The notes beneath the pieces are model-generated. The model saw only the letters and a list, made by a program, of their open reading frames with translations, searched no databases and was not told the DNA's origin. Below, piece by piece: positions 20,928 to 47,905 of a stretch of DNA of 64,000 nucleotides. Every line of letters starts with the position of its first letter. The first letter of the stretch is position 1. The position numbers and the translations under genes were made by a program. The stretch lies in contig OX597835.1 of NCBI GenBank assembly GCA_951406725.2, positions 11,346,001-11,410,000 of the forward strand, in the 5' to 3' direction. Source of the DNA: Octopus vulgaris (taxonomy: Eukaryota).

Positions 20928-21962
20928 GAATCATCGTCATCATCATCCTTTTACGTCCATTTTCTATGCTGGCATGGGTTGGACGTTAGACAGAAGCTGA
21001 TCAGCTGGAGAGCTGCACTAGGCTCCAATTGTCCATTATAGCTTGGTCTCTAAGGCCGGATGCCCTTCCTTATGCCAACCACTTTACAAAGTTTACTGGG
21101 TGCTTTTCACGTGGCACCAGCACGGGAGATTTTTATGTGGCACCAGCACAGGCACATTTTAGATGGCACCAGCACTGCTACTTTTTGCATGGCACCAGCA
21201 CATGTGCTTTTCATGTAGCACCAGCTCAGGAGCATTTTATGTGGCACCAGCACGGGAGATTTTTATGTGGCACCAGCACAGGCACATTTTAGATGGCACC
21301 AGCACTGCTACTTTTCACATGGCACATGTGCTTTTCATGTAGCACCAGCTCAGGAGCATTTTATGTGGCACCAGCACGGGAGATTTTTATGTGGCACCAG
21401 CACAGGCACATTTTAGATGGCACCAGCACTGCTATTTTTCACATGGCACATGTGCTTTTCATGTAGCACCAGCTCAGGAGCATTTTATGTGGCACCAGCA
21501 CAGGCACATTTTAGATGGCACCAGCACTGCTACTTTTCACATGGCACCAGCACATGTGCTTTTCATGTAGCACCAGCTCAGGAGCATTTTATGTGGCACC
21601 AGCACAGGCACATTTTAGATGGCACCAGCACTGCTATTTTTCACATGGCACATGTGCTTTTCATGTAGCACCAGCTCAGGAGCATTTTATGTGGCACCAG
21701 CACGGGAGATTTTTATGTGGCACCAGCACAGGCACATTTTAGATGGCACCAACACTGCTACTTTTCACATGGCACCAGCACATGTGCTTCTCATGTAGCA
21801 CCAGCTCAGGAGCATTTTATGTGGCACCAGCACGGGAGATTTTTATGTGGCACCAGCACAGGCACATTTTAGATGGCACCAGCACTGCTACTTTTCACAT
21901 GGCACCAGCACATGTGCTTTTCATGTAGCACCAGCACATGAGCATTTTATGTGGCACCGGCA
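20928..21962 (-). repeat. Diverged RTE 3' tail whose UTR module has expanded into a higher-order minisatellite (21110-21960)
   Basis: Tail at 20930-21110. Then ~21-bp subunits with core TGGCACCAGCAC, grouped into ~7 higher-order units of ~100-130 bp (anchor ttttatgtggcaccagcacaggcacattttag). Confidence 0.85.
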
Positions 21963-28720: not shown

Positions 28721-28954
28721 GTACTACCTTCGTTTCAAAGACGACTACAGACAAGCAGCCATTGACGTGTTGTTAGGCCAACCAATTGCTGAAGAGACAT
28801 TATTAAGTGCTGGTTTACAGGAAGAGGACATCGAGGGGGAACTTCTGGAAAAGGAAGAGAATGTACGCACACTAATTGACGATTTGAAGAAGATGTTAAT
28901 TGTGGAACCAGAGCAATGTCTTGGAGGATGGAGTCTGGTCAATGCTGATCCTGT
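28721..28954 (+). CDS. INPP5F: Phosphatidylinositide phosphatase SAC2 (INPP5F-like), internal coding exon (end of SAC region into hSac2 domain)
   Basis: Polypyrimidine tract plus tcctAG acceptor at 28719-28720; GTAAGT donor at 28955; 234 nt, phase 2-2. Translates (R)YYLRFKDDYRQAAIDVLLGQPIAEETLL...KKMLIVEPEQCLGGWSLVNADP, matching recalled vertebrate INPP5F RYYLNRFKDAYRQAVIDLMQG...GGWALIDCDP. Confidence 0.92.
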
Positions 28955-30556: not shown

Positions 30557-30713
30557 AGGCGTAGGAGTGGCTGTGTGGTAAGTAGCTTGCTTACGAACCA
30601 CATGGCTCTGGGTTCTTGGGCAAGTGTCTTCTACTATAGCCTCAGGCCGACCAAAGCTTTGTGAGTGGATTTGGTAGACAGAAACTGAAAGAAGCCTGTC
30701 GTATATATGTATA

Positions 30714-30745
<32 letters not shown>

Positions 30746-30832
30746 CATATATACAATGGGCTTCTTTCAGTTTCTGTCTACCAAATCCACTCTCAAAGCT
30801 TTGGTCGGCCTGAGGCTATAGTAGAAGACACT
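30557..30832. mobile_element. SINE family A head plus an inverted partial copy across a (TA)n spacer
   Basis: 30620-30700 (+) is mirrored by 30757-30832 (-). Confidence 0.75.
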
Positions 30833-31021: not shown

Positions 31022-31542
31022 CTGTCTTTGAGTTCAAATTCTGCTGAGGTTGACTTTGCTGTTCATCTTTTTGGGGTTGATAAATTAAGTACCAGTTGCA
31101 TACTAAGGTCAAGCTAATTGACTGGTCCCCTTCCCCAAAATTTCAGGCCTTGTGCCTAGAGTAGAAGAGAATATGTCTTGTCACTTGACAAGTTTCATCA
31201 GTTTGGTGTGAAGACAAAAGTACTTTTAGAAATCAGGAAGGGTTTGCAGCAGGAAAGGAAGCTGGCCATAGAGTACTGTCTCAATAAATCTCATTCAACC
31301 CATGCCTAGAAGACAGACATAAAACTGGAAAGACAAACGGAAAAATGGTATTATTAATACAGATTTGAGTTTTATCCTTCTTTGCATTCAGTATGATGGA
31401 ATTATACTTGTAAACAGTGCTACAGCATGGCCATAGTCCTTGACTAAAAATACTAACTGCATAGGTTCATAGAATACATAATCTCATGCACTCACACACA
31501 GTCACACAAGTACATTAAAAATACATACATACACATATATAT

Positions 31543-31907
31543 GTAACAGGTTTTGTTGAATTTCTGCTGCTTTTAAATATAAAGCATATTACTCTACCCC
31601 TGGTATTTGAGTACTCTTTTTCCACCTTGTTTCACATTTATGTGTTTACTCCGGTATATATATATAAATATATATATATATATACTTTATTTAAAGCAGC
31701 AGAAAATTCAACAAAACCTGTTACTCTGAGTTTCCGTTGCCGTTCATCGGACAGTTTTTACTAGAAAAACTGTCCAATGAACGGCAACGGAAACTCAGAG
31801 TAACAGGTTTTGTTGAATTTTCTGCTGCTTTAAATAAAGCATATTACTCTACCCCTGGTATTTGAGTACTCTTTTTCCACCTTGTTTCACATTTATGTGT
31901 TTACTCC

Positions 31908-31942
<35 letters not shown>

Positions 31943-32169
31943 TTTATTTAAAGCAGCAGAAAATTCAACAAAACCTGTTACTCTGAGTTTCCGTTGCCGT
32001 TCATCGGACAGTTTTTACTAGAAAAAACTGTCCAATGAACGGCAACGGGAAACTCAGAGTAACAGGTTTTGTTGAATTTTCTGCTGCTTTAAATAAAGCA
32101 TATTACTCTACCCCTGGTATTTGAGTACTCTTTTTTCCACCTTGTTTCACATTTATGTGTTTACTCCGG

Positions 32170-32201
<32 letters not shown>

Positions 32202-32429
32202 CTTTATTTAAAGCAGCAGAAAATTCAACAAAACCTGTTACTCTGAGTTTCCCGTTGCCGTTCATCGGACAGTTTTTACTAGAAAAAACTGTCCAATGAA
32301 CGGCAACGGGAAACTCAGAGTAACAGGTTTTGTTGAATTTTCTGCTGCTTTAAATAAAGCATATTACTCTATCACTGGTATTTGAGTACTCTTTTTCCAC
32401 CTTGTTTCACATTTATGTGTTTACTCCGG

Positions 32430-32461
<32 letters not shown>

Positions 32462-32685
32462 CTTTATTTAAAGCAGCAGAAAATTCAACAAAACCTGTTA
32501 CTCTGAGTTTCCGTTGCCGTTCATCGGACAGTTTTTACTAGAAAAACTGTCCAATGAACGCAACGGAAACTCAGAGTAACAGGTTTTGTTGAATTTTCTG
32601 CTGCTTTAAATAAAGCATATTACTCTATCACTGGTATTTGAGTACTCTTTTTCCACCTTGTTTCACATTTATGTGTTTACTCCGG

Positions 32686-32690
<5 letters not shown>
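31543..32690. repeat. Tandem array (~260-bp period) of long palindromes with hammerhead-like motifs; probable Penelope-like pseudo-LTR/retrozyme-type repeat
   Basis: Four palindrome centres (TTTTTACTAGAAAAA at ~31762, 32020, 32280, 32539) with ~75-bp arms, each followed by a ~70-bp unique body and a (TA)n spacer. Confidence 0.9.
31718..31754 (-). ncRNA. Minimal type I hammerhead-like ribozyme motif (U4C variant); repeated in each array unit
   Basis: Minus strand CTGT-CCGATGA-A-CG(GCAA)CG-GAAA-CTC(A)GAG-TA-ACAG: stem I CUGU/ACAG, GNRA-capped stem II, near-palindromic stem III, GUA cleavage triplet. Confidence 0.55.
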
Positions 32691-32734
<44 letters not shown>

Positions 32735-32858: not shown

Positions 32859-32930
32859 AGTTGGAGATCACGATCGACAGGAAATGGATATAATACTGCT
32901 TTTGAGTCAACGAGCATTCTACGTTGGTTG
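32859..32930 (+). CDS. INPP5F: INPP5F/SAC2 internal coding exon (hSac2 domain)
   Basis: T-rich tract plus ctAG acceptor (32857-32858); GTAGGT donor at 32931; 72 nt, phase 2-2. Joins the previous exon in frame giving (V)VGDHDRQEMDIILLLSQRAFYVG(W), cf. recalled HRDVDVLLLLSNSAYYVAY. Not in the ORF track. Confidence 0.9.
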
Positions 32931-33510: not shown

Positions 33511-33845
33511 TTCTTTACTGCCCACAAGGGGCTAAACATAGAGGGGACAAACAAGGACAGACAAAGGGATTTAGTCGATTACATTGACCCCAGTGCAAAC
33601 TGGTACTTTATTTATCGACCCCGAAAGGATGTGTTTAGCCCCTTGTGGGTAGTAAAGAAATAGGTATTTTGTCTGCCGTTACATTCTGAGTTCAAATTCT
33701 GCCGAGATCGACTTTGCCTTTCATCCTTTCGGGGTTGATAAATTAAGTACCAGTTACGCACTGGAGTCGATGTAATCGACTTAATCTGTTTGTCTGTCCT
33801 TGTTTGTCCCCTCTGTGTTTAGCCCCTTGTAGGTAGTAAAGAAAT
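33511..33845. mobile_element. SINE family M multimer with an inverted 5' segment
   Basis: 33511-33630 is minus-strand; 33631-33845 is plus-strand and includes the AAAGAAATAG|GTATTTT unit junction. Confidence 0.78.
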
Positions 33846-34275: not shown

Positions 34276-34532
34276 TATTGTATTATGAATGTATGTTGTT
34301 ATGCACTTATATTGTATTATATATGTGTGTTTATACTATGTATATATATATTCTTGATATGTATATGCTGATGTATATATTGTGTCTGTATCCTATATGT
34401 TTCTATGACTTCGTGTTTGTACCATGCCTTATAATCTTATAATTCAGGGTGTGTGCTTTTGTCTTAATCATACACATTTCATCTCACCTGTCCGGACTTT
34501 CACTCCCAATAACCTTTTCCCTCTTCTTTCAG

Positions 34533-34606
34533 GTATGATGACGAGAAGGAAGCCGTGACGCAGTTCCAGCAGGTTCTCCTGGAAGACATTGTGAAAATCG
34601 AAATAG
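34533..34606 (+). CDS. INPP5F: INPP5F/SAC2 internal coding exon (hSac2 domain)
   Basis: cttctttcAG acceptor (34531-34532); GTAAGG donor at 34607; 74 nt, phase 2-1. Gives (W)YDDEKEAVTQFQQVLLEDIVKIEI(G), cf. recalled YDDEVDKVNQYQRLSLENLEKIEIG. Confidence 0.92.
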
Positions 34607-35728
34607 GTAAGGTCTAAATAATTGCTGGATCTCACATACGTCACCGTTATTATGACAGCTGCGTATCACATTTATATTACTATTCACACACTGTATCACC
34701 CTATATTACAATTAAAGAGACGGCCACCGACTACATTACATCACTGGCAACCACACAATACATTACATCATGTGTGTGTGTGTGAGTGTGTGGCAGAACA
34801 CTTCACTATATATCCATAATGATACACTATTCCAGAAATATATGCATGAAGCTATGCATATTCTCTCTCATACATACACGCGTTATATTGTATTATTATG
34901 AAGCACCTTAGAGCACGTACTGTGACACTGCTCCGCACCCATACTGCATTCTGCACTACAAAATACAGTGTTGTAAAAGTAGGGTTTAGGCTTGACGTGG
35001 TTGCTCAATTTGGTAGAAATAGCAGCTAAATCTCCCTGAAAGTTTCGCCCTGTTTAAGAAAAATTTTTCTAAATGCAATAAATACTATGTTCCTAGAAAG
35101 AAATGTTGGAATGGTCATGTCTAGCATGTCTTTCATTTGCTGGTTCATTTAATCTGGGCTGATCCGGGATTAACCAACAACGACAACAGCACAGCATGAT
35201 ATCCCTTACATCACGCTAGGCATCGAACATCTTCCCTACCACCACCACCACCACCACCGTCATTATAATTACCTGCTTGCTTGCTTGTTTGTTCTCCTCC
35301 TCTTTCTCCTCCCCCCTTTATCATCATCATTAACTTAATTATCATCATCATAACCACCAATATTTCAAACATAGTCACCTCCATCACTACCACCACCACC
35401 ACCACCATCACCAATTGATTTCTCCATTAACTCTTCTGAAACTAAGAAATGTTGATGTAGGTGGGGGTGAGTGGGTGGGCTTGAGTGGTGGGTGGTGGTG
35501 GCAGTGGTGGTGGAGTAGCATTGCCAAATCTGATTCTGCTTATATATCTCCATGTTATTTCTGAGATTTAGAATTTAGAGAGAGAATTTGTGAATCTGGT
35601 TTGGAGTTATTAATTCTCAGCACTGCCATGTGTGTGTGTGAAGCTTTGGTTTCAGGTTCAGTCCCACTATGCAGTACCTTGGAGAAAATTTTTTCTAGTA
35701 GGGTCCAGTGGACAGACACTGTGGAAAC

Positions 35729-45285: not shown

Positions 45286-45859
45286 AAAATTGGATGGGTT
45301 TGGCCAATCCTGAATCTGCTTCGTCAGAGCTCATCTCTAACTAAACAACATTATCAACAATAATAATAATCTTTTCTATTATAGGCACAAGGCCTGAAAT
45401 TTGGGTGGTGGGGCAGTCAATTAGATCGACCCTAATACACAACTGGTACTTAATTTATCAACCCCTGAAAGGATGAAAGGAAAAGTTCATCTCGGCAGAA
45501 TTTGAGCTCAGGTGCTAACAAATCTGCCAGCTCGCCGCCTTAATAATAAGAATAGTGGTTTCAAATTTTAGCACAAGGCCAGCAATTTTGGACAAGGGTT
45601 TAAGTTGATTAAACTGACCCCAGTACTCAGTATTTTATCAACCCTGGAAGGATGACAGGCAAAGTTGTCCATGACTGAATTTGAAATCAGAATGTAAAGG
45701 CAACTAAGCATTTTTTCTGTAATGATTCTGCCTTAATAATATTAAGAATAACAATGAGGCTAATATGCAACAATAAAAACAACATGCAAGAAATTGCTTT
45801 TGAGGGAAAATAAAGTATTTCATAAATCGCTTTTAATTTTGGGGTCATAATTTGTTTTC

Positions 45860-46566
45860 GTGCCACTGGCACGTAAAAAGCACCATCTGTATGTGGCCGA
45901 TACCAGCACCGCCTTAACTGGCTTCTGTGTTGGTGGCATGTAAAAACCACCAACCGATCATGGCTGTTGCCAGCTTCCCCTGGTACATGTGCCAGTGGCA
46001 TGTAAAAAGCACCATCCGTACATGGTCGATGCCAGCGCCACTATGATTGTCTTCCGTGCTGGTGGCACGTAAACAGCACCATCCGATCATGGCCGTTGCT
46101 AGCCTCCCTTGGCACCTGTGCCAGTGGCATGTAAAAAGCACCATCCATACGTGTTCAATGCCAGCGCCACTATGATTGGCTTCCGTGCCGGTGGCACGTA
46201 AAAAGCACCGCCTGATCATGGCCGTTTGCCAGCCTCCCTTGGCACCTGTGCCAGTGGCACGTAAAAAGCACCATCCGTACGTGGTCGATGCCAGCGCCAC
46301 CTTGACTGGCTTCCGTGCTGGTGGCACATAAAAAGCACCATCTGATCACGGCCATTGCCAGCCTCCCCTAGCACCTGTGCCGGTGGCACATAAAAAGCAC
46401 CCACTACACTCACAGAGTGGTTGGTGTTAGGAAGGGCATCCAGCTGTAGTAACACTGCCAGATCAGACTGGAGCCTGGTGCAGCCTCCATGGCTTGCCAG
46501 ACCCCGGTCGAACCATCCAACCCATGCTAGCATGAAAAACAGACGTTAAACGACGATGATGATGAT
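45860..46566 (+). repeat. RTE 3' UTR with nine hairpin modules (alternating 67/62-bp spacing, ~129-bp higher-order unit) and (GAT)n tail
   Basis: GGCA(C/T)GTAAAAAGCACC at ~45868, 45935, 45997, 46064, 46126, 46193, 46255, 46323 and 46385. Confidence 0.85.
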
Positions 46567-47520: not shown

Positions 47521-47905
47521 ATGTTTGGTGTTGACAGTATTGACAACTATGTGACTTGTTGGCATTGACAACAGTATGGTCGATGTGGATAATATTGACA
47601 GCTATGTGCCTGTTGTTGGCATTTACAAAGACATGTTTGGTATTGACGGAATTGACAACTATGTGCCTGTTGTTGGCGTTTACAATGACATGTTTGGTAT
47701 TGACGGTATTGACAACTATGTGACTTGTTGGTATTGACAACAGTATGGTCAGTGTGGATAATATTGACAGCTATGTGCCTGTTGTTGGTGTTTACAATGA
47801 CATGGTTGGTGTTGACTGTATTGACAACTATGTGGTGGTTGTTGTTGACAATGACATGGTTGGTGCTGATGATATTGATTGCTACGTATCTGTTGTTGTT
47901 GACAA
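47521..47905. repeat. ~55-57-bp diverged minisatellite (about 7 copies)
   Basis: Unit atgtttggtattgac..attgacaactatgtgcctgttgttggcatttacaatgac. Confidence 0.82.

Follow-up and report, generated by a model that had tools for sequence, protein, structure and literature searches.

Reports on endonuclease-bearing (EN+) Penelope-like elements (PLEs) describe inverted 5′-truncated copies that bear a tail on one side only and meet at a palindrome (PMC3846280; PMC8557442) and, for the PAc element of Anolis, a protein that in vitro cuts and extends both target strands and begins reverse transcription at two internal sites which define the tail, together with a hammerhead that is protein-assisted and whose cleavage is dispensable (PMC11167929). 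The Hydra clade of PLEs is diagnosed by the protein motifs RWK, DKT, CxCx5C and CxxC..E..N..CxH, by (TA)n targeting and by hammerheads (PMC8557442). Free minimal PLE hammerheads are described as cleaving weakly and as dimers only, and pairs of motifs near each other on opposite strands are noted in the same source (PMC4209133). Metazoan non-LTR retrozymes are tandem units of 150–450 bp with a type I motif, for which an origin from pseudo-LTRs (pLTRs) has been argued (PMC7229834; bioRxiv 10.64898/2026.07.22.740005). Here we compare with these systems an array found in a 64-kb stretch of Octopus vulgaris DNA (the window). With a probability of roughly 80%, its unit is a head-to-head pair of Hydra-clade pLTRs in a TA microsatellite, the array arose via local duplication, and its hammerhead motifs are predicted to be inactive. 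In a literature search of limited reach, neither this PLE family nor any tandem array built from head-to-head pLTR stumps turned up.

Layout of the array and its host gene

A first-pass annotation of the window had claimed an ~260-bp tandem repeat with four near-perfect hairpins, which was borne out by TRF (period 260, 4.5 copies, 97% matches at 31543–32717) and by the presence, within the same limits, of four centred inverted repeats with arms of 75–84 bp that are 96–98% complementary. In each full unit, (TA)n is followed by an inverted short arm and then, across a junction centred on CTAG, by a long arm, the short arm extending from −46 to +37 and the long arm from −44 to +109 relative to the hammerhead cut site. 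The array opens on the + strand with a half unit (31543–31655), a long pLTR arm truncated at its 5′ end to 3 nt ahead of the cut site and running to the +109 end. The (TA)n target microsatellite follows at 31656–31684 and recurs between units at ~31911–31941, 32171–32201, 32431–32461 and 32687–32731. The four short arms, all on the − strand, with the core CCGATGA (U4C), lie at 31685–31759 (ending at +37; motif 31718–31754), 31942–32016 (motif 31975–32011), 32202–32277 (motif 32235–32272) and 32462–32536 (motif 32495–32531). The full long arms, on the + strand, with the core CCAATGA (U4C and G5A), occupy 31765–31910 (motif 31770–31806), 32023–32170 (motif 32028–32065), 32284–32430 (motif 32289–32326) and 32542–32686 (motif 32547–32582), the +109 end of the last being also the exact end of the array.

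The tail of the half unit and of long arms 1 and 2 reads ACCCCT and that of long arms 3 and 4 ATCACT, so that two substitution classes stand in polar order. Each is one step from the ACCACT of the family, which by hand count made up 95 of the first 100 matches listed, the variants accounting for four and one. The remaining differences among the copies are homopolymer-length changes, the same as long-read error would produce. This bears on the reading that a single head-to-head insertion is real and the 4.5-fold tandem partly or wholly an assembly artefact of fold-back or haplotype stitching, which we consider unlikely. Perfect hairpins in (TA)n are difficult to assemble, according to PMC8557442; the copy number comes from the assembly, no contig of four DNA-type runs spanning the array and no read-level span having been obtained; and the array is the sole one of its kind found. 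An artefact is argued against by the two clean substitution classes, both rare in the family, by the strictly regular, unmirrored order of short arm, long arm and TA tract, by a contig of an independent run that holds the left junction (31150–31572, with one other letter and two gaps), and by a 1.5-unit version at another locus, L128.

The annotated position of the array, ending ~170 nt 5′ of a 72-nt exon, agreed with a measured gap of 172 nt between the end of the last arm (32686) and the exon at 32859–32930 (+ strand), which has AG/GT borders, belongs to the hSac2 domain of INPP5F/Sac2 and matches residues 43–61 of the SAC2 chain 4XUU weakly (E 0.51). An upstream hSac2 exon with approximate bounds of 28848–28952 (+) matched positions 5–40 of PF12456 (E 0.011), and the next exon downstream, 34528–34611 (+), matched 4XUU residues 62–87 (E 0.005) and Pfam hSac2 (E 1e-5). 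As hSac2 exon matches are found on both sides, the array is intronic in what is, from sequence matches, a probable + strand INPP5F/Sac2 gene. Elsewhere in the genome (G000:C12:10914631-10914831), an unspliced hSac2-domain match of 53.7 bits with one internal stop may represent either a processed pseudogene or a further member of the family.

Several other repeats were observed in the window. The intron that holds the array also contains a second palindrome (30623–30832) with 105-nt arms and a TA-tract centre, unrelated to the array in sequence and apparently made from a dispersed repeat. A very high-copy repeat with huge contig depth, which we take to be SINE-like, is present at 31029–31174 and 33687–33781, and further minisatellite arrays occur at 21098–21962, 45859–46401 and 47521–47905 (periods ~26/124, 67/129 and 57, respectively).

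The dispersed pseudo-LTR family and its parent element

A search for dispersed copies, suggested by the first-pass annotation, found thousands of them. The long arm as query gave 2,053 candidates, and the 40 that were scored included copies of 96–99% identity on many contigs, usually with an inverted partner adjacent; a 26-mer from the arm had 4,027 exact matches in the genome, against 0 for a control. The first 100 matches listed for this 26-mer yielded 98 distinct anchored arms belonging to 81 insertions, a sample which takes in a few copies of the sister subfamily described below and leaves out solo copies truncated past the anchor. The 3′ ends were bimodal, ~59 of the 98 lying at +29 to +42 and 39 at +104 to +109 after the cut site, and (TA)n adjoined nearly all of them. 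The 5′ ends of the 98 arms were spread between −171 and −1 and formed a hump at −47 to −38, just upstream of the motif. No 5′-end peak was seen at the cut site, where three of the 98 arms ended (at −1), all three being internal deletions; in a hand tally of 40 loci, ~8 had a 5′ end within −3 to +1, near the ~20% expected for an even spread. A start of the array at the GUA site as the mark of a cleaved template is thus unsupported by the genomic 5′ ends. These variable 5′ and fixed 3′ ends, and the derivation of the arms from the pLTR of an element that encodes a reverse transcriptase (RT), also led us to reject the reading of a MITE or of a foldback DNA transposon.

Of the 81 sampled insertions, 44 consisted of two arms facing head-to-head no more than 60 nt apart, the other 37 being solo or having a distant partner. 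A long arm was paired with a short one in 40 of the 44; one pair was short with short, three had an odd end and none was long with long, a combination which does exist in the score-selected set (L002, L014 and L023). Paired arms differed at 2.4% of 1,971 sites, compared with 3.5 ± 0.3% when partners were shuffled (0 of 2,000 shuffles were as low), and because paired arms are more alike than shuffled partners, both arms of a pair would tend to share one source.

The sequence at the centre of the unit was matched six times, four times in the array and twice in single insertions elsewhere, both lacking G5A and equal in anatomy to one array unit. The junction of tail, (TA)n and short arm had 11 exact matches, four in the array and seven elsewhere (two without a TA spacer), and none of these seven loci is an array; L128 carries the 1.5-unit seed, arranged as long-TA-short-long. 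Judged from these sequence matches, the unit itself is a common insertion and only its tandem amplification is particular to the INPP5F/Sac2 locus; by extrapolation, similar single hairpins may number hundreds to thousands in the genome. Other rearrangements were observed at individual loci: a 1,332-bp tandem duplication (L116:359-1938) carries a head-to-head pair twice, so that here too such a stump was duplicated locally, and four compound insertions (L118, L120, L121 and L126) have three to four arms alternating in orientation inside a single TA tract.

The claim of back-to-back PLE pseudo-LTRs was substantiated when the parent element was found. A full-length copy (L031) comprises a pLTR with tail, ORF remnants broken by stops and frameshifts, an ~1.1-kb 3′UTR and a pLTR ending at +37; Pfam searches with five ORF fragments of this copy gave nothing meaningful. 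Its RT fragment returned 14,094 candidates, and 38 of the 129 scored had a 727-aa open frame by hand count. Two of the 38 were translated (L159:731-3072 and L160; G000:C2:191029777.. and C1:64217927..). Both gave a 727-aa stop-to-stop frame with RWK at 53, DKT in place of DKG at 129, YRDD at 360, CxCx5C at 578, GVVY/YTG at 596/614, CxxC at 683 and CxH at 711, these last two flanking E and N, indicating at the level of motifs a single ORF with an RT plus a GIY-YIG-like endonuclease at the C terminus, and no N-terminal EN.

The first 100 matches listed of 4,957 in a survey of the core motif, counted by hand, comprised 73 with CTGATGA, 26 with CCGATGA and one with CCAATGA. The canonical core was found in all seven motif-bearing loci among 11 ORF loci. 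U4C is fixed in the entire subfamily to which the array belongs (26 among the first 100 listed matches to the core). Tails differ pairwise by 1.5% in the canonical subfamily (16 copies) and by 3.3% in the U4C subfamily (35 copies); on these divergences the canonical-core sister subfamily is the younger, and with its intact 727-aa frames it is probably still active. Long and short arms form pairs in the sister subfamily too, of sizes ranging from 80 bp to kilobases, at 20 loci chosen as opposed neighbours. The divergence between the subfamilies is 5% in the motif, 6–12% in the adjacent pLTR, 1–4% in the tail and 8–45% further upstream.

On these motifs, and when set by eye beside the published proteins of Hydra elements, the parent corresponds to a Hydra-clade PLE. 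It shares with these C-terminal EN+ elements, as presented by Craig et al. (2021; PMC8557442), RWK, DKT and the CxCx5C linker, CxxC and CxH around E and N, (TA)n as target and, close to the 3′ end, a hammerhead of canonical type; the arms of stems I and III are identical to those of Hydra-2_Amil (supplement File S2). Hydra-1_Obim differs by eye in hammerhead and protein and represents a different family. The octopus family departs from the clade, so far as described there, in a stem II of just 2–3 bp with a GNRA loop, in a parent element of ~3.5 kb with its ~1.1-kb 3′UTR as against ‘<3 kb’, and, in the array subfamily, in the fixed U4C.

Sequence and folding of the hammerhead motifs

A scan of both strands of the whole window for type I hammerheads, with checks of the stems, gave five matches, every one inside the array. 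The motif is present in all eight arms, the three beyond the scan matches differing by one base before GAAA or being located in folding, and has the minimal type I layout, with stems I, II and a palindromic III around the core and an NUH site. Its presence in every arm, four on each strand, upheld the annotated motif; the purine that the annotation had left ambiguous in the core proved strand-specific (CCAATGA in 4/4 + arms, CCGATGA in 4/4 − arms), and base 11.1 before GAAA had been omitted from it, a base kept in three of the eight array arms and present in most genomic copies. What had been missed altogether was that the array lacks the intact core CUGANGA...GAAA, since U4C occurs in all eight arms and G5A in all four gene-sense arms. 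In a search with hammerhead models, which had been proposed as a check, no hammerhead family was among the 113 Rfam matches at E ≤ 1. A MIR395 match at gathering score (32235–32326) and other miRNA matches were rejected as generic hairpin matches.

The extra base after A9, the short helix I and the palindromic helix III suited to dimers recall the minimal PLE hammerheads treated by Cervera and de la Pena (2014; PMC4209133), from which the array family differs in having C-G in place of G10.1-C11.1 where helix II begins at its base, and in a very short rather than long helix II. G5A abolishes cleavage in published hammerheads and serves as an inactive control (PMC4027429; PMC4075628), whereas U4C reduces activity in vitro yet permitted viroid infectivity and can be tolerated in vivo (PMC3088659).

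Among 66 sampled family copies, G5A, a CpG-type change, was found in three, and the common variants were N7 (19), loop 2 GCAA to GGAA, which is still GNRA (8), and 11.1 (23), a tally in which the search pattern itself fixed several core positions. Judged on sequence, these are free positions tolerated by the hammerhead fold. Within the family, two-sided covariation of the stems was not found; a published table shows it at the level of the clade only. Beyond one event, nothing supports the idea that G5A was selected for in gene sense, the background being 3/66, and this idea was rejected.

Isolated motifs folded no better than shuffled sequences (z 0.03–1.17), as is to be expected for minimal motifs. 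When the 1,144-nt array was folded, 35–38 of the 36–38 nucleotides of each of the eight motifs were predicted to pair with the antisense arm in both polarities, the predicted pairing probability of stem I was 0.0 in all eight, and forcing hammerhead stems I and II cost 71 (+) and 77 (−) kcal/mol per unit. Given the head-to-head order of the arms, the antisense arm is the first to be transcribed, whichever the direction of read-through. Helix III is predicted to be able to form as a dimer (−7.4 kcal/mol). The motifs of the array are thus predicted by modelling to be inactive at the INPP5F/Sac2 locus. Some cleavage by the antisense arms, which carry U4C only, may nevertheless occur, given the tolerance of U4C in vivo and the protein assistance of a PLE hammerhead. 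Working ribozymes and unit-length or circular RNAs, as the first-pass annotation had envisaged, are not supported, given G5A in the sense arms, complete predicted sequestration and junctions that are not dispersed as a multimer; long hairpin RNA in the intron, in the form of four ~80-bp near-perfect hairpins, is predicted by folding.

Origin of the array and its probable RNA products

The tandem amplification of a back-to-back pLTR unit asserted at the outset is present in the assembly as 4.5 × 260 bp. For the origin of the unit, we infer that a dimeric RT-endonuclease cut both (TA)n strands and that cDNA was primed at two fixed sites 72 nt apart; the two cDNAs, from +37 and +109, would have been joined just upstream of the motif, where CTAG forms a micro-palindrome. 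The insertion data fit such twin priming, and fold-back self-priming, proposed in PMC3846280, could likewise apply. A second, truncated long arm in the shared TA tract would then have set up a directly repeated sequence, and slippage or unequal exchange involving both long arms would have copied the unit to n+0.5 copies. The polar order of ACCCCT and ATCACT fits exchange that drew on two source arms and was itself polar, and in sequence terms these two variants point to local unequal exchange and not to rolling-circle copying.

A head-to-head arrangement of 5′-truncated copies, a junction palindrome and a one-armed tail are features that the array shares with inverted-pLTR insertions of EN+ PLEs such as Adineta Pen2a (PMC3846280), Naiad (PMC8557442) and PAc, with its two RT starts (PMC11167929). 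Its tail of 72 nt compares with 30–40 in the known inverted-pLTR insertions, and it differs from these, as documented there, in that both arms are tiny ORF-less stumps and the pair of stumps is tandemly amplified. Non-LTR retrozymes (PMC7229834; bioRxiv 10.64898/2026.07.22.740005) resemble it in tandem units of 150–450 bp, type I motif and pLTR origin, and differ from its palindromic units, mutated cores, predicted self-sequestration and occurrence as an array at one locus only. The array works like a PLE inverted-pLTR insertion; it resembles retrozymes in unit size and fails in core integrity, folding and dispersal, seven of the 11 exact matches to the unit-unit junction being at non-array loci.

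It is accordingly most improbable that the array is a nascent non-LTR retrozyme, in which a palindromic-unit RNA would have undergone cleavage and circularisation, with 4.5 rounds of reverse transcription from +109, and which would still yield ~260-nt RNAs. The unit size, the pLTR origin argued for retrozymes, the dimeric helix III and the limits of the array, from 3 nt before the cut site to exactly +109, would suit such a history. A single circular template, however, cannot easily yield both ACCCCT and ATCACT arms, which require two changes; G5A is in every sense arm, with the motifs predicted to be fully sequestered in both polarities; only five other loci, none of them an array, have the junction of tail, (TA)n and short arm, and only two have the centre, both single insertions without G5A; and the cut site lacks a 5′-end peak. 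A related proposal, very unlikely in our estimation, is a retrozyme at birth, or one that silences itself: antisense U4C hammerheads, freed by the RT protein of the sister subfamily, would give ~260-nt rod-like circles, and G5A would spare the INPP5F pre-mRNA.

Under the preferred reading, a head-to-head PLE insertion multiplied locally, read-through RNA is predicted to meet the antisense arm first and to zip into an ~80-bp hairpin. From these models, the likeliest effect of the array at the RNA level is an intronic double-stranded RNA that may be open to ADAR editing or dicing, and not a cleaved or circular RNA. Widespread A-to-I editing of repeats in coleoids, reported in PMC9068888, together with the predicted near-perfect hairpins in the pre-mRNA and the location of the inactivating change in the sense-strand cores, would be in keeping with an array retained as a regulatory double-stranded RNA cassette acting on the editing or splicing of the INPP5F exon downstream. 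We nevertheless hold such retention to be exceedingly improbable: one CpG-type event before amplification suffices for G5A, at 3/66 in the family, and the many similar single hairpins extrapolated for the genome do not mark the array out.

The array is an ordinary mobile-element relic and not a new ribozyme system; were the retrozyme-at-birth reading true, the array would illustrate the way in which pseudo-LTRs give rise to retrozymes. Two side results are of modest value, to PLE specialists. The first is the near-strict pairing of one long with one short arm (40/44), which, together with the closer-than-random likeness of paired arms, would allow twin priming from a fixed pair of RT starts to be read from the genome. 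The second lies in the two subfamilies: the young sister, with its intact ORFs and canonical core, lends itself to in vitro studies of Hydra-clade elements, and the U4C subfamily spread in spite of its weakened core.
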